Under the pieces are notes generated by a model. That model had not been told where the DNA came from and made no database searches. It saw only the letters and a program-made list of their open reading frames with translations. Below, in pieces: positions 12,557-22,896 of a stretch of DNA of 64,000 nt; position 1 is the first letter of the stretch; every line of letters begins with the position of its first letter. Position numbers and translations under genes: made by a program. Location: positions 6,437 to 70,436 of the forward strand of contig CAKZSV010000031.1 in the NCBI GenBank assembly GCA_937921485.1, in the 5' to 3' direction. The stretch comes from an uncultured bacterium (lineage in GTDB: Bacteria > Spirochaetota > UBA4802 > JAGODF01).

Positions 12557-13222
12557 TTAATGCTCCTCGTTACTCTCATCGATGTCGTTATCGTCATCCG
12601 TGAGATTTTTCTTTTCGGTTATGCCTTCTCCCTTTTCAGCCGGATCATCTCGCCTTTTTTCTTTTTTTGATTTCTTTTCTTCCGGAGGCGACATTGCGTC
12701 AAGAAGAACCCGCGCAACCGCATCACGCCTATGAAGCTGTGCGGCTTTCAGCGCAGTGATGCCTTTTGTATTGGCATGCCTGGCATCAGCCCCTTTTTCA
12801 AGAAGAAATTTTACGATTTCAACATGTCCCCGCATTGACGCCCAGATGAGCGCCGTGGTGCCGTCGTGCGATGTTGCATTTACATCTGCGCCGGCCTTTG
12901 CGAGTATCTTCACCGCGTCGAGTTTTCCCCTCTCCGCGGCTATCATCAGAGCCGTAACGCCGTTTTTCCTTTTCGCATCTATGCGGGCATCATGCGCAAT
13001 GAGATATTCCACCAATGTCGCATGCCCTTTTTCCGCAGCCCGCATGAGAGCGGTTTCGCCGCGTGAATCAGCTACATTGACATCTGCGCCTGCAAGAAGT
13101 GCTTTCCTGGCTTCATTCTCGTCACCCTTTTCCACCCCCCGCATAAGTTCTTCCTGCGGCCCTGCAAAAAGGGATACAGCAATTAAAATGATGACCGAAG
13201 CAAGAACGTGTATCTTTCGCAT
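12557..13222 (-). CDS. Secreted ankyrin-repeat protein.
   Basis: Signal peptide from the internal Met (MRKIHVLASVIILIAVSLFAG). At least four ankyrin repeats (GETALMRAAEKGHATLVEYLIAHDARIDAK…). The table ORF extends to 13276, but the probable start is 13222. Confidence 0.75.
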   Translation of the reverse strand: MRKIHVLASVIILIAVSLFAGPQEELMRGVEKGDENEARKALLAGADVNVADSRGETALMRAAEKGHATLVEYLIAHDARIDAKRKNGVTALMIAAERGKLDAVKILAKAGADVNATSHDGTTALIWASMRGHVEIVKFLLEKGADARHANTKGITALKAAQLHRRDAVARVLLDAMSPPEEKKSKKEKRRDDPAEKGEGITEKKNLTDDDNDIDESNEEH

Positions 13223-13456
13223 GAGATTACCACTGTGCCCGGTTATACTTCTGGTTGCTCGCAAAATCGTCAGCAATTTTTTTTAATTTCGCGATGATTT
13301 TTGAAAAAATTTTTTTACGAATGTCGTATTTCATCGTATTGTAAATATGCGATATCACAGGAGTTTATTATTGAAAAATAATACTTGCGATTTTCACCAT
13401 GCGTTCATATTATATCGCAATCTTTACAATCCTAAGTTTCAGGCATACATGAAATA

Positions 13457-14864: not shown

Positions 14865-15257
14865 CTAAAGGAGCTTTTCGAGTTCCCGAATTACATTAAT
14901 TAGCACAAAGCGCTTTTTCTGCCTAATGCGGCTTTTGATCTTAGGTGATTCCTTGTTGATGGATTCTACTGCGGACCGCACCACCGATTTCACAAGCCCC
15001 TTGAATTCAGGGTGATGTTTGAGGCTCAATGATGCATCGTCCTGCTCCGATTCAATTTCACCGCGGTCTTCCGCATCGCCGTACCGTTTAATGAGTTCCC
15101 GTGCGGCAAGTTCCTTATCGAAATTTACGCTTTCAAGAATATCGCTGCTGCAGATGATCACTTCAAGAAGATCGAATAGCTCCTCAGTGGAGCGTTCCGG
15201 ATATTTTTTCTGCAGAAATTCGAGTACCTGATTGAACCGTTCATCCATTGCGCCCAC
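14865..15257 (-). CDS. Hypothetical protein (130 aa).
   Basis: Clean ORF convergent with the hydrolase gene. No recognisable motif. Confidence 0.45.
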   Translation of the reverse strand: MGAMDERFNQVLEFLQKKYPERSTEELFDLLEVIICSSDILESVNFDKELAARELIKRYGDAEDRGEIESEQDDASLSLKHHPEFKGLVKSVVRSAVESINKESPKIKSRIRQKKRFVLINVIRELEKLL

Positions 15258-15352: not shown

Positions 15353-16159
15353 TTGAATACCGCACAACCGCAAACGTCCCCCAAGGAGGCCCACAAATTA
15401 ATGCTACTAAATGGCGTGAAAAAAAGCAAGCTTCTTTCTTTTTCGTGCGCAGACGATGTGCGCTCAGCATTATACAAACTTTCCGACGATAGGCAGGCCA
15501 GGATTTTATCAAAATTTTTCAAAACAGGCCCCGGCGAGTATGGCGAGGGAGATATTTTCTGGGGCATCAGGGTTCCGCAAATACGGTCGATTGCACGCCG
15601 GTGTTTGAACCTCCAGCTTTCTGCGCTTGATGGGCTTTTACACAACCCGGTGCATGAATGCAGGCTCTGCGCCGCGCTTGCCATTGTTGAAAAATATAAA
15701 AAGGGCGACGAAAAAATCAAGAAAACCTGTTTTCAATTTTATGTATCACACGTAACAGCAATCAACAACTGGGACATTGTCGATCTTACTGCACCTAACA
15801 TCATCGGCGATTATCTGTTCAGGAATCCGCGTGAAAGGAAACTACTCTCCCGTCTTGCAAAATCAAAAAATCTCTGGGAGCGCAGAATCGCCATTGTTGC
15901 GACGCATGAATTCATAAAAAACGGTGAACTTGAAGACACTTTTTCCATTGTGAAACTTTTGTTGAAAGACCCCCATGACCTCATCCATAAAGCGGTGGGC
16001 TGGATGCTCCGCGAAGCAGGAAAACGCAATCGTGATGCGGAGATTCAATTCCTGAATGAATATTGCACCATGATGCCGCGAACAGCGCTTCGCTATGCCA
16101 TTGAACATTTCTCAGAAAAGCAGCGCACACACTACCTTGCCTGTTCCCGGGCGCAATGA
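15353..16159 (+). CDS. DNA alkylation repair enzyme (AlkD-like HEAT-repeat DNA glycosylase family).
   Basis: Characteristic AlkD-family segments (…NWDIVD…; WERRIAIVATHEFIKNG; HDLIHKAVGWMLRE). The start may be an internal Met. Confidence 0.7.
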   Translation: MNTAQPQTSPKEAHKLMLLNGVKKSKLLSFSCADDVRSALYKLSDDRQARILSKFFKTGPGEYGEGDIFWGIRVPQIRSIARRCLNLQLSALDGLLHNPVHECRLCAALAIVEKYKKGDEKIKKTCFQFYVSHVTAINNWDIVDLTAPNIIGDYLFRNPRERKLLSRLAKSKNLWERRIAIVATHEFIKNGELEDTFSIVKLLLKDPHDLIHKAVGWMLREAGKRNRDAEIQFLNEYCTMMPRTALRYAIEHFSEKQRTHYLACSRAQ

Positions 16160-16252
16160 AATATTTTAATTGCACTAAATTATTATTGACATCTCTATAA
16201 TCTTTTTTTTAGTTCTCGTCTCAATCGTAAAATATATATTTTCGGGTTTTCT

Positions 16253-17383
16253 ATGTATAATCTATTCATCACCGGAGCCATTTTCATCTCATGCCTCTTC
16301 TCAATACAGGCATTTGCGCAAACGCATACTCCCGCGCACTGGAACGATATGGCGCGCTTTCTTGCCGGATTGCCGCTCGAGGCTTCGAGCCAGTTTGAGC
16401 AACTGACGAGGTCTAAAAACTATCTGCACCATAAGATGAAAATGAATGAATACTGGGAGCGCGTCGAAAAAGGCAATATCGCGCAGATTATCCCCTGGAG
16501 AGCCCGCTACATTGAACCTCATTTTAACCGCGGTACCGTGCTGTATCCTTTAAGCGGCGGAGATTTCATCAACATGTACACCTTTTATCCAGGCGCACGG
16601 CGGTACGTTATGATATCGCGGGAACCGGAAGGAACAATACCCGATCTCTTCTCTTTGAGCGACTCACAGCTTGCAAGCGGCCTTCAATCCATACGAAGCT
16701 GCATCTGGTCAATCGCTTCGGTGAATTATTTTGTGACAAAAGCCATGCGCGCGGAAATGAAAAACCGATACATCGGCGGTACGCTGCCGGTTTATCTCAT
16801 CTATGCGTCCCGATTGGGGCTCACCATCACCAATATTGAGCGTGTGGGCATCTCAAAAGAAGGAATGCTTTTCACGATTAACAATGGTGGCACCATCAAA
16901 GGGGAGACGCCGGTTATTAGCGGCAATCGCATTTCCTTCATCCAGCCGGGATCGAACACGCCCGGTGAACTTATATATCTTAGCATGTATATCACACCAA
17001 AATCCATGGATGCTGAAACACCAGAAGGGAAATTTCTCTCATCCCTTTCACGAATTAATGTCATCATCAAATCAGCGGTATACCTCCTGCATAGACCTGC
17101 GTATGAGCCGTTTGTCCGCGCACTTCTGCAGAGGACCAGCATGCTGATCGAAGACGATTCCGGTATTCCATTCCGCTATCTTAATCCGGATGTGTTTTCA
17201 ATTAAACTTTTCGGTGCGTTCGATACGCCGGTCAGATTGAAAGAAATACCAAATCCTCCGAAACAGCCGGATCTCGCGGATGCGATGAAAGAAAACACGA
17301 CACCGCTGCCTTTCAGCTTCGGTTATGGCGTCCTCAGGAAAGACCGTCAATCAAATTTAATATTAGCCATACGGCAACGGTGA
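16253..17383 (+). CDS. Secreted protein of unknown function, paralog A.
   Basis: Signal peptide (MYNLFITGAIFISCLFSIQAFA). Shares conserved blocks with the downstream ORF (NDMARFLAG; IIPWR; YPLSGGDFIN; ELIYLSM; NVIIKSAVYLLHR; PLPFSFGYG). Confidence 0.6.
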   Translation: MYNLFITGAIFISCLFSIQAFAQTHTPAHWNDMARFLAGLPLEASSQFEQLTRSKNYLHHKMKMNEYWERVEKGNIAQIIPWRARYIEPHFNRGTVLYPLSGGDFINMYTFYPGARRYVMISREPEGTIPDLFSLSDSQLASGLQSIRSCIWSIASVNYFVTKAMRAEMKNRYIGGTLPVYLIYASRLGLTITNIERVGISKEGMLFTINNGGTIKGETPVISGNRISFIQPGSNTPGELIYLSMYITPKSMDAETPEGKFLSSLSRINVIIKSAVYLLHRPAYEPFVRALLQRTSMLIEDDSGIPFRYLNPDVFSIKLFGAFDTPVRLKEIPNPPKQPDLADAMKENTTPLPFSFGYGVLRKDRQSNLILAIRQR

Positions 17384-18546
17384 TGAAAAACAAAATATTT
17401 TCAGGATTAGTTTTTGCTTTTTATGCGATTTGCATGTGCACTCACGCGTTTGCAACAGAGTTGCAAAGCAAAACAGAGACTGTAAATTATAATGACATGG
17501 CGCGCTATCTTGCTGGAATTCAACTTGAACAGCAAAGTTCCCTGTACCCGCTTACGCAAAAAAAATTTTTTCGTGAACACTCTGCGATGATGGAGAGGTT
17601 TTGGAGTGAGGTTCTCAGAGAAAACGTATTCAATATCATACCCTGGCGAAATTCTCATTTAATGCCTCATTATGATTATGGAACTGCGTTTTATCCGCTC
17701 TCAGGCGGCGATTTCATTAACTTCTATCTGTTTTATCCGCTTGCGAAAAAGTACATCATGGTTTCTCTCGAAGAGGCGGGTCGCCTTCCCAAATTAAACT
17801 CTTTGAAAGATCACGAACTGCAAAGCGGACTTCGATCTCTTCGCAATGCAATCGGAAATATCGCGAAGAAAAACTATATGATGTCGGCAATCATGAAGCA
17901 TGAGATGAAAAATCCTTTTCTTGAAGGAACGCTTCCGACCATACTGGTATTTGCGGCCAGAATGGAACTCGACATCCGCCGGATAGAACCGGTGATGCTA
18001 ACCGCCAGGGGAACACTGGTTTCGGCCGCCGATTTATCTCTTTCAAAAGATGAAGCCGTCGCGACCGGCAATCGTATTGTCTTCAAAGCGTCTCCCACAG
18101 GCCCGGAGCGAGAACTGATTTATCTTTCCATGCGCCTTCGTCATGATTCATTTGATCCCGTTGCTCCCGGCGGAAAATTTTTTTCCGACCTGCGGGATCT
18201 CAATGTCATTATTAAATCCGCTTTTTATCTTTTGCATCGCGCGAGTTTCGGACGATTTTGCACATCCCTGCTTGAACGGACCCGGCTGCTGATTCAGGAC
18301 GATTCAGGTCTTCCCTACAGCTTCTTTGACAATTCATCCTGGAATACCTTTTTATTCGGCCATTACACCCACCCGCTTGCCCTTCGGGACATGAAGCATC
18401 CTGTCGATCAGCCGGAGCTTGCGCGCGAATTCAAAAACAAAGCTCAGCCCCTGCCATTTAATTTCGGGTACGGTACCTGGCGTACCGATAAAAAATCCAA
18501 CCTCATCATGGCCGTAAGGAAAAGCAAAAAAAGCAATCAGAAATGA
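17380..18546 (+). CDS. Secreted protein of unknown function, paralog B (about 45% identical to paralog A).
   Basis: Its start overlaps the stop of paralog A (gTGATGa). It has a signal peptide and the same conserved blocks (NDMARYLAG; IIPWR; YPLSGGDFIN; ELIYLSM; NVIIKSAFYLLHR; PLPFNFGYG). Confidence 0.6.
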   Translation: MMKNKIFSGLVFAFYAICMCTHAFATELQSKTETVNYNDMARYLAGIQLEQQSSLYPLTQKKFFREHSAMMERFWSEVLRENVFNIIPWRNSHLMPHYDYGTAFYPLSGGDFINFYLFYPLAKKYIMVSLEEAGRLPKLNSLKDHELQSGLRSLRNAIGNIAKKNYMMSAIMKHEMKNPFLEGTLPTILVFAARMELDIRRIEPVMLTARGTLVSAADLSLSKDEAVATGNRIVFKASPTGPERELIYLSMRLRHDSFDPVAPGGKFFSDLRDLNVIIKSAFYLLHRASFGRFCTSLLERTRLLIQDDSGLPYSFFDNSSWNTFLFGHYTHPLALRDMKHPVDQPELAREFKNKAQPLPFNFGYGTWRTDKKSNLIMAVRKSKKSNQK

Positions 18547-18584: not shown

Positions 18585-20330
18585 TCAAGTTCTTTTAAAA
18601 AGCCTGTCCATCTCGCTCTTGCCTAATCGATATACAAAAGGCCTTCCATGCGGACAGCGCAGTTCATGTGTGCCAGATAAAATTTCGTAAGCAATAGCGC
18701 GTGCGTCATGAAGTGAGATGCCATCTCCTGCCCGAAATGCGGAATGGCACGCAATCTTTTCTGCAATTATTTTCTTTAACTCATCTATCGATACTTTCCG
18801 CTCGCCCTCTCCCGAAAAATCCTGAAAAAATTGATCTATGTTTAAAGAAGAAGCAACCGAAGGAATCGCGCGCACGGCAAGCGCGCTTTTCCCTATTTCC
18901 TCAATTTCAAAACCGATTTCATTCAACATGTCTTTTTTTTCAAGAATTCGTTCGCATTCCGCGGGTGACAGCTCAAGCGGATGCGGAAATAACAGTGCCT
19001 GTGAGTCGGGCTCGTATGCTCTGTCCATGAGAGCATCATAAATAATCCGCTCATGAGCGGCATGATAGTCGATCAGTACAAGTCCTTCTTCGTCCTGTAT
19101 CAGAAGATAGGTGTCGAAAAGGATGTCCACGCGCAGTTCCGGTATATCTTTCCGTGCATAAAACGATTTTTCTTCTCCCACAAAAGAATTCCGGGATGCG
19201 GGCTTTTGCATCTCGATTCGTGACGCTTCTCCGAAAATCAATTCCCCCGCGCTATCGCGTTCCAATTCCCCGTTATTATTTTTTCTTTGCTGCGTAACGT
19301 TTTCTTTTCGACCCGTAAAAAAGCTTTCCTGGATTCTGTGCGCACCGCTTCCAAGACATTTTCGTGTGAGATTAATGATAAGCGCGTTGATGTAATTCTG
19401 ATCGAAAAAGCGAACTTCCTTTTTGGCAGGATGCACATTCACGTCCAAAAGAGCGGGATCGAGATGAATAAAAAGAAACGCCGCAGGATGCTCTCCATGG
19501 CGAAGCATGGACTCATAACTTTTTGAAAGAAGAAAACCTAAGGATTTATGTTCCACCGGGCGTCCGTTCACATACAAAAATTGAAGCGATCGATTCGGGC
19601 GCTTGAAAGCAGGGCCACTGACAAGACCCGCAATCAAAGCCCGAAGGTCTTTCAACTCCCCTTCAATTAAATGCTGTGCTACCACATCACCGTGAATCTG
19701 AAAGATCCGCTCGCGTACAGAATTTACGGCCGGCAGAACGGATTGCGATTTTCCATCAACAATCAGACGAAACGAAACATCCGGGCGGGCAATTGCCGTT
19801 TTGAAAAATATATCTTTAATTGCCCGAAGTTCATGAGAAGGCGAGCGCAGAAATTTTTTCCTTGCGGGGACATTAAAAAAAAGGTTTTCTGCTATCACCG
19901 TACACCCGGAAGAGCCAGCGTAATCCGATAGCTCACACCTTCCGCCTTTCGATATGAGCTTCGACCCAGGAACCTCCTCCTTTCTTCTGGAAATTATCGT
20001 AAGTTCGGAAATCGATGCAATGCTCGACAGGGCTTCACCCCTGAAGCCGTATGTGGCTATGGAAGAGATGTCTTCAATTTTTCGAATTTTACTGGTCGCA
20101 TGCTCTCTGCCGACGAAGGGCATGTCCTCACGGGATATTCCCTCGCCATCGTCGCGCACTAAAATTTTTTTCATGCCCGCATCATCGATCTCAACATCGA
20201 TGTGCATCGCTCCCGCATCGAGTGAATTTTCGATAAGTTCTTTTAGAACCGAGAACGGGCCTTCGACGACTTCGCCCGCCGCAATCTTGTGCTTTACCTC
20301 ATCGGGGAGAATGTGTATTCTTCCTGGCAC
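18585..20330 (-). CDS. mutL: DNA mismatch repair protein MutL.
   Basis: N-terminal GHKL ATPase motifs (IAAGEVVEGPFSVLKELIENSLDAG; DDGEGI) and a C-terminal dimerisation/endonuclease region. 581 aa. Confidence 0.9.
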   Translation of the reverse strand: MPGRIHILPDEVKHKIAAGEVVEGPFSVLKELIENSLDAGAMHIDVEIDDAGMKKILVRDDGEGISREDMPFVGREHATSKIRKIEDISSIATYGFRGEALSSIASISELTIISRRKEEVPGSKLISKGGRCELSDYAGSSGCTVIAENLFFNVPARKKFLRSPSHELRAIKDIFFKTAIARPDVSFRLIVDGKSQSVLPAVNSVRERIFQIHGDVVAQHLIEGELKDLRALIAGLVSGPAFKRPNRSLQFLYVNGRPVEHKSLGFLLSKSYESMLRHGEHPAAFLFIHLDPALLDVNVHPAKKEVRFFDQNYINALIINLTRKCLGSGAHRIQESFFTGRKENVTQQRKNNNGELERDSAGELIFGEASRIEMQKPASRNSFVGEEKSFYARKDIPELRVDILFDTYLLIQDEEGLVLIDYHAAHERIIYDALMDRAYEPDSQALLFPHPLELSPAECERILEKKDMLNEIGFEIEEIGKSALAVRAIPSVASSLNIDQFFQDFSGEGERKVSIDELKKIIAEKIACHSAFRAGDGISLHDARAIAYEILSGTHELRCPHGRPFVYRLGKSEMDRLFKRT

Positions 20331-21279: not shown

Positions 21280-22896
21280 TCAGCCATTTATTTTTTTCCT
21301 AAAACCCTGAGGCGATTCGCCGGTACATTTCTGGAACACGCGATAGAACGTGGGAAGGCTTTCAAATCCGACCGCGAACGCAATGCTGGCAATGCTGTTG
21401 TCGGGATCGGCAAGCAGTTCCTGCGCTTTGCGGATTCTCACTTCGTTTAAATATTCACCTGTTTTCTTTCCGGTATATTGCTTGAAGAGCTTGCCAAAGT
21501 AGTCGGCATTCATTCCCACTTCATCTGCAAGTGATTCGCGCGTGATGTCTTCGGCGAATTTTTCTTCGATGATGCGGAGTGCTATTTTTAATTTTTCTTC
21601 AGTTTCGGAGCCGATTCTGGACTTTTTAGCTGTCCCGGTAGTTTGATCGCGCCGTTCGGTACTTTCAACGCGCTTTTTCAATTCAACAAAACGGCAGTGC
21701 ATGATATAGGCGATGCCGATGATGAGGAACAAATACGCATATCCTGAAAGGCTGATGAAATTGTACATCGCACGGTTAACCAGAATGTCATTTATGAGCG
21801 TCAAAGTCAGAATGATGAATGCCGCCAGAAGAAAAACGAATTCTCTTCGGTTCCGCAACCTGCGTACAACAACATAAAACGAATATATCACAGGATAGAG
21901 CCACGTAGGCTGAATAATGTTCTTCAAAACCCAATTCCAGACGAGAGGGTTATTGCTCACCGTGACGATTATCACACCTGAAAGAGTTATCGCATGAAAG
22001 ATATAATGAAAAATGTTTCGTTTTCGCGCCGTATAATACGCCATAAACTCAAGAAACATTGAAAAAATCAGGAAAAGAACGATATATTCTAACTTTTTCA
22101 TCACAAGAAAATTGTCGGAAATGAGATATTTAATCTGCGTCCGAAAGAAAAAATACACCGCCGAAAGCATGGTGGCCAGGGAAAAAAAGAGATTGTCTCT
22201 CTCAACTGCATGAAGAAAAAATATAATACCGAAATAAAGACTCACGGCTAAATAGATAACAACAAAAAACATCGAAAAGAACTCACGGGAAAGCAAATCC
22301 CGCTGAAGCTGCATAAACGGACCTATGCGAAATTCACCGGTATACGGGCCTGACGGCGATGGAAAAAGCGAAGCCACTCTGAGGGCAAAGAGATTTACCG
22401 CACCAGGACGAATAAGAATGGTGGGTATTTCATAGACTCGAATTTTATCATAACAGGATCTTCGATTGGGGGGAAAAGCGCCGGAAGATGCAATTTTAAC
22501 ACCGTTGAAATACAACTCATCGACATCGCTGATGATGCCAAGCTGAATGCCGAGGCTGTGCGCGGGAAGCCTTGAGGGAAAGCGCACTGGAATGCGATAC
22601 CAGCATACCCCCTCCCATCCGGGAAAAACTTTCGTCCAGTCGGAAGGAAGCGGAATCACCTGCCAGGTGCTATCATCGAAAGAGAGGCGCGCGTATTCGG
22701 GATTATCGCCCTTTTGTATGCGCACGATTTTCATTTGAGAAAAAGCAATTATTTTATCAAATTCCTCCAGTGATAGCATGGGAACATCTGCGTTCGGCGC
22801 CGATTGAAGCAGAGCCATTAGCGGTGCAACAACAAAGAGTATTTTCATTTTCTTTATAATACGCATCATTATCTCATCAATTGCATGTGAAAACAC
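21280..22896 (-). CDS. 7TM-DISM (7TMR-DISMED2 + 7TM) membrane sensor fused to an AraC-family HTH transcriptional regulator.
   Basis: Signal peptide, an extracellular beta-rich domain, seven hydrophobic helices, then a C-terminal AraC HTH (…IASIAFAVGFESLPTFYRVFQKCTGESP). The probable start is the internal Met at about 22848. Confidence 0.75.
   Translation of the reverse strand: MFSHAIDEIMMRIIKKMKILFVVAPLMALLQSAPNADVPMLSLEEFDKIIAFSQMKIVRIQKGDNPEYARLSFDDSTWQVIPLPSDWTKVFPGWEGVCWYRIPVRFPSRLPAHSLGIQLGIISDVDELYFNGVKIASSGAFPPNRRSCYDKIRVYEIPTILIRPGAVNLFALRVASLFPSPSGPYTGEFRIGPFMQLQRDLLSREFFSMFFVVIYLAVSLYFGIIFFLHAVERDNLFFSLATMLSAVYFFFRTQIKYLISDNFLVMKKLEYIVLFLIFSMFLEFMAYYTARKRNIFHYIFHAITLSGVIIVTVSNNPLVWNWVLKNIIQPTWLYPVIYSFYVVVRRLRNRREFVFLLAAFIILTLTLINDILVNRAMYNFISLSGYAYLFLIIGIAYIMHCRFVELKKRVESTERRDQTTGTAKKSRIGSETEEKLKIALRIIEEKFAEDITRESLADEVGMNADYFGKLFKQYTGKKTGEYLNEVRIRKAQELLADPDNSIASIAFAVGFESLPTFYRVFQKCTGESPQGFRKKING

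Follow-up and report, generated by a model that had tools for sequence, protein, structure and literature searches.

Two adjacent genes, A and B, in the 64-kb window (the whole stretch of DNA analysed, 64,000 nucleotides) stem from a single gene that was duplicated in tandem in this lineage. They belong to a large family of exported proteins, still unnamed, that has neither a Pfam nor an NCBIfam model and no studied member. In other phyla its genes are linked to an amino-acid permease and, in Methylosinus, fused to it; this linkage is the strongest functional lead and points to an undescribed function in the cell envelope.

A tandem duplication within a large exported family

The pair and its immediate surroundings comprise the following features:

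15353-16159, AlkD-like gene (PF08713, DNA_alkylation), upstream flank
16160..16252, plus strand, AT-rich spacer upstream of A, 93 nt, with TATAAT at 16196-16201
16253..17383, plus strand, gene of paralog A, 376 aa (ORF list)
16253..16318, plus strand, predicted Sec signal peptide of A, MYNLFITGAIFISCLFSIQAFA, with A-F-A cleavage motif (read from the sequence)
17380..17383, plus strand, start/stop overlap GTGA, a junction of the translational-coupling type, 4 nt (read from the sequence)
17380..18546, plus strand, gene of paralog B, 388 aa from GTG 17380 or 387 aa from ATG 17383
17380..17454, plus strand, predicted Sec signal peptide of B, MMKNKIFSGLVFAFYAICMCTHAFA (read from the sequence)
18585-20330, minus strand, MutL gene, downstream flank

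The initial annotation described two neighbouring genes that overlap by 4 nt and encode paralogs of about 45% identity. Both points were borne out by the open reading frames (16253-17383 and 17380-18546) and by BLASTP, which aligned A and B with 166/381 identities (44%, E 1e-111). All seven sequence blocks that had been listed as conserved between the two proteins (NDMAR[FY]LAG, IIPWR, YPLSGGDFIN, ELIYLSM, NVIIKSA[VF]YLLHR, DDSG[IL]P and PLPF[SN]FGYG) lie within this alignment. The letters at the junction are ...CAA CGG TGA with G-GTG-ATG-A, and the stop codon of A is at 17381-17383. Its overlap with the start of B is 4 nt if translation begins at GTG 17380 and 1 nt if it begins at ATG 17383. 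We prefer the 4-nt overlap because the orthologous junctions at two other loci (L006 and L008) have ATGA at the same place. More distant pairs have gaps of 25-102 nt instead of an overlap.

Protein A is present in public assemblies as an exact match (P0001), and B, when read from ATG 17383, is identical to a protein (P0024) on the same 101,778-bp public contig. With the family HMM, A scored 486.6 bits and B 482.0 bits. The dN/dS ratio was 0.115 for A (against its L006 ortholog) and 0.128 for B; both genes are thus under purifying selection (dN/dS ~0.12).

Each N-terminus consists of a short n-region followed by a hydrophobic core and the motif A-F-A, with predicted cleavage at MYNLFITGAIFISCLFSIQAFA|Q in A and MMKNKIFSGLVFAFYAICMCTHAFA|T in B, which would leave residues 23-376 of A and 26-388 of B as the mature proteins. 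A hydrophobic, signal-like N-terminal segment was present in 237 of 240 family members, and a lipobox-like cysteine in approximately 70 of the 240. The family is therefore predicted to consist of exported proteins, some of them soluble and others lipoproteins. These N-termini agree with the signal peptides that had been noted on both proteins, and the idea of a duplicated exported module holds as a tandem duplication of one exported protein.

At E≤1e-3 the family comprised 3,300 representatives (50%-identity clusters). It occurs in at least four phyla and was found in Spirochaetota, Bacteroidota, Desulfobacterota and Methylosinus; the genome scan used a 17-sequence alignment as the query. In the searches made here, no member was found in any cultured Leptospira genome. 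Neither A nor B matched Pfam, NCBIfam or PADLOC, Pfam matched none of 48 family members, and a search of PDB sequences with one protein and two profiles gave chance matches to antibodies and viral polymerases only. The earlier statement that no characterised family is recognisable by sequence thus stood in all four resources. A literature search covering motifs, keywords, DUF7790 and periplasmic methyltransferases found no paper on the family. Among long family members, the fusion to an APC permease was the sole informative extension; the others were of low complexity or unannotated.

The flanking genes are, as reported before, an AlkD-like gene and mutL. The absence of a functional tie to these neighbours was also confirmed, since mutL adjoins the pair only in close relatives. 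We consider a functional connection of the pair with the AlkD-like and MutL genes extremely unlikely. The order of AlkD-like gene, pair, convergent mutL and sirtuin gene is kept at L006 and L008, and the pair stays next to mutL at L001, L009 and L011-13, but at these latter loci the upstream neighbour differs, and outside the clade the association is gone. Moreover, A and B leave the cytoplasm, in which the repair enzymes are located, and mutL is convergent and hence not co-transcribed with the pair. We rejected the link as local synteny that is lost outside close relatives. The TATAAT at 16196-16201 may be part of a promoter belonging to A itself; a scan for promoter and terminator consensus sequences found nothing convincing on the plus strand. 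Rfam gave no match (E≤1) at 12-22 kb of the window, so that no riboswitch was recognised in the spacer, and none in 13 permease-linked loci.

Predicted fold and conserved site

The AlphaFold2 (AF2) model of A had a pLDDT of 91.6 and a pTM of 0.88, and that of sequence P0096 a pLDDT of 94.3. In both, an N-terminal helical cap lies over a Rossmann-like alpha/beta domain; the mature protein is approximately 350 aa long. With the model of A, Foldseek ranked PPM1 (1rjd_C, E 5.8e-3) first, followed by LCMT1 (leucine carboxyl methyltransferase), DOT1L, COMT and NNMT. The P0096 model gave TPMT (thiopurine S-methyltransferase, 2gb4_B, E 1.6e-3, probability 1.00, TMt 0.50), then LCMT1, PNMT and GNMT. 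In BFVD, an uncharacterised giant-virus protein (E 5e-5) was followed by methyltransferases. No PDB fold match reached E≤1e-3, and TM-scores were 0.3-0.5. No hydrolase fold was found among the top structural matches of either model. Pfam, NCBIfam, PDB profiles and hhalign revealed no sequence or profile likeness to known methyltransferase families.

The structural matches are weak but consistent, and they suggest that the fold of A and B is not new and resembles that of class I SAM-dependent methyltransferases, with those acting on small molecules and carboxyl groups as the nearest structural relatives. The assignment is only suggestive because no PDB match reached the threshold given above, TM-scores were low and the profile comparison with TPMT was negative. 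For the latter, hhalign against human TPMT gave a probability of 0.1%. Against an 18-sequence TPMT alignment, the family alignment matched over no more than 54 columns, with a probability of 3.2% (E 0.013); this comparison was of limited power as the TPMT sequences were all from vertebrates and nearly all mammalian. Given these values (≤3.2%) and no match to PF05724, we rejected membership in the TPMT family. The structure matches, weak and unsupported by the profiles, thus stopped short of a confident family assignment that would explain the conserved blocks, and they do not refute the earlier idea of a novel family.

Conservation was counted over 252 sequences, with residues numbered as in A and secondary structure taken from the AF2 model. 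The conserved elements are located as follows:

16535..16573, plus strand, A residues 95-107, VLYPLSGGDFINM, strand β1 and glycine-rich loop (AF2 model and conservation)
16622..16624, plus strand, E124 of A, just after strand β2, 98% conserved (AF2 model and conservation)
17069..17092, plus strand, A residues 273-280, KSAVYLLH, after strand β4 (AF2 model and conservation)
17153..17170, plus strand, A residues 301-306, DDSGIP, after strand β5 (AF2 model and conservation)
17683..17721, plus strand, equivalent of the β1/glycine-rich loop block in B, TAFYPLSGGDFIN (A/B alignment)

Strand 95-98 runs into YP[LF]-S-G-[GA]-D, placing a glycine-rich loop right after β1, which by its position would correspond to methyltransferase motif I. 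In this block Y98, G102 and D104 are invariant, and position 101 is Ser in 236 sequences, Cys in 7 and Gly in 7. E124 lies two residues past the end of strand 117-122 (β2), where Rossmann and methyltransferase folds bind the ribose; the putative role of E124, binding of the SAM ribose, is taken from class I methyltransferases. K273 is invariant, and A275 (98%), Y277 (97%) and H280 (92%) are highly conserved; position 280 is His in 233 sequences, Gln in 9 and Tyr in 4. In the last block the conservation is 98% for D301, 97% for D302, 94% for S303 and 97% for G304. B as well as A keeps all invariant family residues, and the changes specific to A or B cluster at residues 157-163 in one helix.

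In the model, the invariant residues that follow β1, β2, β4 and β5 would form the canonical ligand or cofactor site of such folds, and the order of the strands suggests that the conserved residues cluster in space. The many acidic, Lys and Tyr side chains of the site would suit the binding of an amino-acid-type group. In the initial annotation, blocks containing Ser, Gly, Asp and His were taken as a hint of an enzymatic or ligand-binding fold. These blocks probably do mark a site of ligand binding or catalysis, but Ser and His are not its best catalytic candidates, given Gly in place of S101 in 7/252 sequences and Gln or Tyr in place of H280 in 13/252. Judged by conservation, Y98, G102, D104, K273, E124, D301 and D302 are better catalytic candidates.

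Comparison with known proteins places these features in context. TPMT (PF05724), PNMT, NNMT, GNMT and COMT share the architecture predicted for the family, in which N-terminal helices cap a Rossmann-like sheet. TPMT also has a similar β1 motif (FFPLCG, compared with FYPL[SC]G) and an acidic residue after β2. However, TPMT is cytosolic and the family exported, the profiles are dissimilar, and the family adds a three-strand β-meander (A residues 191-244) and has KSAxYLLH and DDSG as invariant motifs not shared with TPMT. LCMT1 and PPM1 resemble the family in size and in the helical additions to the methyltransferase core, and LCMT1 (3o7w) recurred in both Foldseek searches, but TM-scores were only ~0.3, no sequence relationship was found, and these are eukaryotic cytosolic protein-modifying enzymes, unlike the exported family. 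The DUF7790/LIC_10091 lipoproteins are, like the A/B family, uncharacterised, exported and found in Leptospirales. One is encoded directly upstream of a family gene (L041), and by eye they share a similar pattern of strands and glycine-rich loop. In contrast to the A/B family, DUF7790 typically occurs in fusion with an FGE-sulfatase domain. We rejected it as a distant paralog (hhalign probability 0.4%).

Permease linkage and copy number in other lineages

Outside Spirochaetota, an APC/LAT permease (PF13520; TIGR00911-like, 5.7e-61) directly adjoined the family gene in ~23 of ~27 loci, in three gene orders. In Methylosinus, permease and family protein are fused in frame (WP_246659694.1, 809 aa, 8 cluster members); the fusion of Methylosinus sporium is WP_244594765.1. 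The family domain of the 809-aa fusion is C-terminal to the permease and one extra hydrophobic helix, a domain order that would place it outside the membrane. A second paralog and a β-lactamase-fold hydrolase were often found near the family gene in these phyla. Enzymes of envelope peptides and amino acids recur as neighbours: an M23 peptidase, hydrolases of the β-lactamase fold (PF13354, PF00144) and secreted amidohydrolases with a relationship to Xaa-Pro dipeptidase. In Flavobacteriia, for example, one operon combines genes for an M23 peptidase, the permease, the family protein and a hydrolase. Within the 64-kb window no APC permease was detected. Gene contexts in Spirochaetota were heterogeneous, and the permease neighbour was missing at nearly all loci of this phylum, including those of the clade of the window; the function in the window may differ for that reason.

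The tight coupling of the two genes had led to the suggestion of a heterodimer. We regard an obligate heterodimer, in which A and B are each inactive alone, as improbable because most loci carry one copy: ~77 of 94 were single-copy, and 17 had two or more. The 4-nt overlap would favour equimolar co-translation, the A/B order is kept in five genomes, and at least five further lineages also have paired paralogs, in many cases together with the permease. However, a neighbour-joining tree (without support values) indicated that tandem pairs arose independently at least five times and not by one ancient split, and more distant pairs no longer have the overlap. In addition, the full conserved site is present in both copies, so neither resembles a degenerate scaffold. 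A and B may instead form a hetero-oligomer facultatively or have divided specificities between them.

Possible functions of the family

We propose, with about even confidence, that A and B are an exported ligand-binding or enzymatic module that acts on an amino-acid-like compound. The family protein would be located on the outside of the cytoplasmic membrane. Its target there would be an amino-acid-like compound carried into or out of the cell by the permease, and it would either bind this compound or convert it chemically. Both the location and the kind of compound are suggested by the operons and the fusion with an L-type (LAT/APC) permease. In the Leptospirales clade of the window there is no permease link; here the gene has been duplicated, and the copies would be co-translated via the 4-nt overlap. 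The divergence between A and B, mainly in helix 157-163, may then have produced two specificities or a facultative hetero-oligomer. The data show the two genes and their paralogy, the signals for export, purifying selection, the size of the family, the class of the predicted fold, the layout of the conserved site, and the synteny and fusion; the type of ligand, the choice between enzyme and binder and any contact between A and B are what we infer from them.

A different function that would fit the predicted fold is SAM-dependent methylation of envelope proteins, lipids or small molecules in the periplasm. The SAM would come from the cytoplasm, in other lineages possibly through the linked APC permease. 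SAM-methyltransferases account for all of the best structural matches, the glycine-rich loop after β1 (G102) and E124 after β2 are in the right places, and the β1 motif FYPL[SC]G resembles FFPLCG of TPMT (sequence P0379). Some permeases of the APC superfamily carry SAM or S-methylmethionine (yeast Sam3, E. coli MmuP), which would fit such a supply. Nevertheless, our literature search found no periplasmic SAM pool and no periplasmic SAM-dependent methyltransferase, and the exported location argues against ready access to SAM. The signal peptides are of the Sec and not the Tat type, meaning that the protein would fold outside the cell. As no HMM or profile likeness to any methyltransferase family was found, and as the window is without a linked permease, we consider this function rather unlikely for A and B. 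The family could also consist of cofactor-independent hydrolases (peptidase, amidase or esterase) with a site of the Ser/Cys-His-Asp type. Their role would be to free amino acids for uptake from peptides of the envelope or the environment. This would match the neighbouring peptidases, hydrolases and amino-acid permease, the strong conservation of H280, D301 and D302, and the exchange of S101 for Cys in 7/252 sequences, which is typical of nucleophile swaps. However, the variation at positions 101 and 280 described above affects both the nucleophile and the general base, so that neither can be essential and the idea of a Ser-His-Asp hydrolase is weakened. With no hydrolase fold among the top structural matches and no nucleophile-elbow or SGNH block pattern, we think hydrolytic activity of this kind clearly unlikely. 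The amino-acid-directed module outside the membrane is thus our preferred interpretation.

The SLC3 heavy chains (4F2hc, rBAT) of eukaryotic heteromeric amino-acid transporters offer an analogy to such an arrangement: they are enzyme-like ectodomains physically associated with L-type SLC7/LAT transporters. The family gene adjoins, or is fused to, the gene of a bacterial LAT-type permease, and any physical complex of the two proteins is hypothetical. The SLC3 ectodomains differ in having a glycosidase fold, in being eukaryotic and disulfide-linked, and in having no homology to the family; the window, moreover, is without a permease. A more far-reaching conjecture, which we regard as very doubtful, is that the family represents the first extracytoplasmic SAM-dependent methyltransferase system, supplied by or complexed with a dedicated LAT-type permease. 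Such a system would be the bacterial counterpart to the heteromeric SLC3-SLC7 transporters. In Leptospira interrogans, OmpL32 is reported to carry glutamate O-methyl esters and LipL32 to be methylated (PMC4214626). The free-standing, duplicated Leptospirales enzymes, if they are methyltransferases, could explain methyl modifications of envelope proteins; however, the cultured Leptospira genomes, as noted above, yielded no family member in our searches.

The family unites a methyltransferase-like Rossmann fold with an intact site of the cofactor type, export through the cytoplasmic membrane, and a close genetic coupling to L-type transporters that extends to an in-frame fusion, three features that are not normally found together. 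Bacterial LAT transporters serve as structural models for the human SLC7 transporters and, to our knowledge, are thought to act without partner subunits; an associated ectodomain, if true, would change this picture. As users of SAM, the family proteins would be the first methyltransferases of the periplasm; otherwise they would be a clear example of a methyltransferase fold put to new use in an extracytoplasmic binder or enzyme.

The paralog pair and its family

The two genes under study, A and B, lie in tandem:

16253-17383, + strand, gene A, 376 aa
17380-18546, + strand, gene B, 388 aa from GTG (387 aa from ATG at 17383)

Both open reading frames are real, and their products align over the full length with 44% identity (BLASTP, E=1e-111), confirming the paralogy proposed in the initial annotation; every conserved block quoted there is present in the alignment. 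The TGA stop of A (17381-17383) overlaps the start of B, and because ATGA occupies the equivalent junction in the orthologous loci L006 and L008 (L001-L094 being family-bearing loci from other genomes), the 4-nt overlap is a conserved arrangement. The nearest relative of the window is an uncultured Leptospirales MAG (L006, 93%), whose pair shares 93% (A) and 86% (B) amino-acid identity with that of the window. Using this closest ortholog pair as reference, dN/dS was 0.115 for A and 0.128 for B, indicating that both genes are maintained by selection.

The predicted signal peptide of each paralog was also borne out, as both N-termini have typical Sec features, a hydrophobic core followed by A-F-A. 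A signal-like hydrophobic segment is present in 237 of the 240 family members with enough N-terminal sequence; about 70 members carry a lipobox-like cysteine and few appear Tat-like.

Neither A nor B matched Pfam, NCBIfam or PADLOC, none of 48 diverse family members had a meaningful Pfam match, and PDB sequence searches, one with A and two with family profiles, returned chance matches only. By sequence, the pair matches no known family, in line with the initial annotation. A word-indexed search found 819 family clusters at 90% identity; with an exhaustive HMM search the count was 3,300 representatives at 50% identity (E≤1e-3; 1,546 with E≤1e-30); all matches bearing a name are called 'hypothetical protein'. 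Scanning one genome per GTDB species yielded 80 loci, the majority in MAGs of Leptospirales or other Spirochaetota and the remainder in Bacteroidota (including Muribaculaceae) and Desulfobacterota/Syntrophobacteraceae. An additional branch occurs in cultured Methylosinus.

Predicted fold, conserved site and duplication

Confident AlphaFold2 models were obtained for A (pLDDT 91.6, pTM 0.88; 48-sequence alignment) and, with better scores, for the compact family member P0096 (pLDDT 94.3, pTM 0.92; 93-sequence alignment). Each model predicts a signal helix, a ~60-residue helical cap and a domain of alternating β and α elements into which three strands are inserted. Foldseek found no PDB structure at E≤1e-3 for either model; class I SAM-dependent methyltransferases, an already known fold class, dominate both match lists. 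The A model matched PPM1 (E=5.8e-3), prenyl-diphosphate methyltransferases, DOT1L, COMT, NNMT and LCMT1, and the best match of P0096 was thiopurine methyltransferase (TPMT; 2gb4_B, E=1.6e-3, probability 1.00, target TM 0.50), with further matches to 3bgd, LCMT1, PNMT and GNMT. The FFPLCG motif of TPMT resembles the β1 motif of the family. Profile-profile comparison with a TPMT query identical to P0379 (PF05724) gave no support for TPMT-family membership (probability 0.1% with the single sequence, 3.2% with an 18-sequence alignment).

Among BFVD viral models, P0096 matched A0A5K0U891 of Yasminevirus sp. GU-2018 first (E=5.1e-5, TM 0.44), followed by methyltransferases. This uncharacterised giant-virus protein of similar length (393 aa) was the sole structural match of P0096 below E=1e-3; it is a candidate viral homolog.

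In an alignment of 252 sequences, six residues are invariant (Y98, G102, D104, G176, K273 and G321), and E124, A275, Y277, D301, D302, G304, F354 and Y358 are among those conserved in at least 97%. Rossmann-type proteins bind their ligand in the loops that lie along the C-terminal edge of their parallel sheet. In the secondary structure of the A model the conserved blocks are predicted to fall in these loops, with YP[LF]SG[GA]D directly after β1, E124 two residues past β2, KSAxYLLH after β4 and DDSG after β5. SAM or nucleotide binding is classically marked by two features, a glycine-rich loop that follows β1 and an acidic residue that follows β2.

According to the family HMM, 17 of the 94 loci carry two copies. 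In L091-L094 the permease or family gene is followed by an 'unknown' gene (338-358 aa), which is likewise a divergent family member (hhalign probability 100%, E=5e-82). Copies within a lineage were nearer each other than copies of other lineages in a neighbour-joining tree without support values, which would imply at least five independent duplications (window clade A/B split; L011-13; L043; L091-93; L066/L069; L080). Fixed differences between A-type and B-type proteins of the window clade cluster at positions 157-163 (NYFVTK versus NYMMSA) and include a few C-terminal positions, and both types retain all invariant site residues.

Genomic neighbourhoods

ORFs were predicted in every locus retrieved, grouped into clusters and compared with HMMs. 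The window pair is flanked, as first described, by an AlkD-like gene (PF08713) upstream and convergent mutL downstream, the latter followed by genes for a sirtuin and a 7TMR-DISM/AraC regulator. Convergent mutL also follows the pair in L006, L008, L009 and L001, and the separately duplicated pair of L011-13 adjoins mutL likewise. Since the upstream gene varies (AlkD-like in the window, L006 and L008, other genes elsewhere) and the pair-mutL arrangement is lost beyond close relatives, we conclude that the DNA-repair neighbourhood is local synteny, in agreement with the initial annotation, which saw no obvious functional link.

Three nearby window genes were also recorded:

12557-13276, - strand, 239-aa ankyrin-repeat protein with hydrophobic signal-like N-terminus and acidic Lys-rich tail
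14865-15257, - strand, 130-aa acidic ORF without Pfam match, between α/β-hydrolase and AlkD-like genes
21280-22896, - strand, 538-aa protein with 7TMR-DISM membrane sensor domain and C-terminal AraC-type HTH

Exported ankyrin proteins are, to our knowledge, uncommon in free-living bacteria. The acidic ORF (cluster c27) keeps its position in L006-L008, and the 7TMR-DISM/AraC gene (cluster c19) is kept beside the sirtuin gene in related loci.

Neighbours in other Spirochaetota are lineage-specific. About 10 loci have an upstream lipoprotein MsrB-MsrA fusion (SelR+PMSR), presumably periplasmic given its lipobox signal, together with a DUF2007 protein (L004, 3522-4550; ~9 others including L028, L034, L035, L037, L038, L040, L048 and L081). 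Another group has TetR and glycosyltransferase neighbours. Four Leptospirales MAGs carry a downstream secreted Amidohydro_1 gene overlapping the family gene stop by 4 nt (L023, 6125-7528; L052, 6116-7420; L079; L058), whose best NCBIfam relative is a Caulobacter-type Xaa-Pro dipeptidase; this makes a second kind of translationally coupled partner. A DUF7790/LIC_10091 domain adjoins the family gene in L041 (3783-4973). This uncharacterised exported Leptospirales family (homologs P0259-P0378) is mostly fused to an FGE-sulfatase (SUMF1/EgtB/PvdO) domain, and was rejected as a relative of ours (hhalign probability 0.4%).

Outside Spirochaetota the context is markedly uniform: in ~23 of ~27 loci the immediate same-strand neighbour of the family gene is an APC-superfamily permease (PF13520), with small gaps or overlaps and in three gene orders (L061, L063, L069, L072, L073, L075, L080, L082-L085, L086-L088, L091-L094; protein P0211). 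In NCBIfam this permease is closest to TIGR00911 (5.7e-61), the L-type amino-acid transporter (LAT) subfamily. In Methylosinus the family domain is fused in frame to the permease C-terminus (WP_246659694.1, 809 aa, 8 cluster members); the signal-like helix would there act as an extra transmembrane segment, placing the domain outside the cell. We know of no partner ectodomains of bacterial LAT transporters. Other genes that recur in these loci encode β-lactamase-fold serine hydrolases (PF13354 in Bacteroidota and Desulfobacterota; PF00144 in L086-88, L093 and L094), an M23 peptidase (Bacteroidota) and an α/β hydrolase (Muribaculaceae). Within the 64 kb of the window there is neither an APC permease nor such a hydrolase, and a third paralog is likewise absent. 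No riboswitch or other Rfam element was found upstream of family genes in the window region or in 13 permease-linked loci.

In L086-L088, an Rce1-like CPBP intramembrane protease gene lies upstream of the family gene and is translationally coupled to it through a 4-nt overlap; the permease and the convergent PF00144 β-lactamase-fold gene come next. In eukaryotes, Rce1 cleavage precedes carboxyl methylation; the combination with a methyltransferase-like fold is a curious parallel, observed in a single lineage.

Possible functions

In the best-supported interpretation, drawing on the predicted models, the proteins would be exported modules of methyltransferase-like Rossmann fold that bind a ligand or act as enzymes. 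We consider a true periplasmic SAM-dependent methyltransferase unlikely: its cofactor-type motifs are intact, but a periplasmic source of SAM is not known and sequence shows no link to methyltransferases. Less likely than this is a cofactor-free hydrolase. The Ser and His of the blocks highlighted in the initial annotation are not strictly required. At position 101, S (236 of the 252 sequences) is replaced by C (7) or G (7), and at position 280, H (233) gives way to Q (9) or Y (4), which weakens a Ser-His-Asp hydrolase model. We give still less credence to an obligate A-B heterodimer, an extension of the suggested heterodimer, because most loci have a single copy and a partner paralog is therefore not required for function. 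A DNA-repair role is very unlikely given the purely local synteny.

We found no description of the family, its export or its LAT-permease coupling in the resources or literature searched. In most lineages, the exported module would work at the outer face of the cytoplasmic membrane together with an L-type amino-acid permease and act on an amino-acid-like compound. The gene has no permease link in the Leptospirales clade of the window, where it occurs as a duplicated, co-translated pair. Duplicates have been retained repeatedly, which suggests an advantage, for example two specificities or the conversion of a homo-oligomer into a hetero-oligomer.
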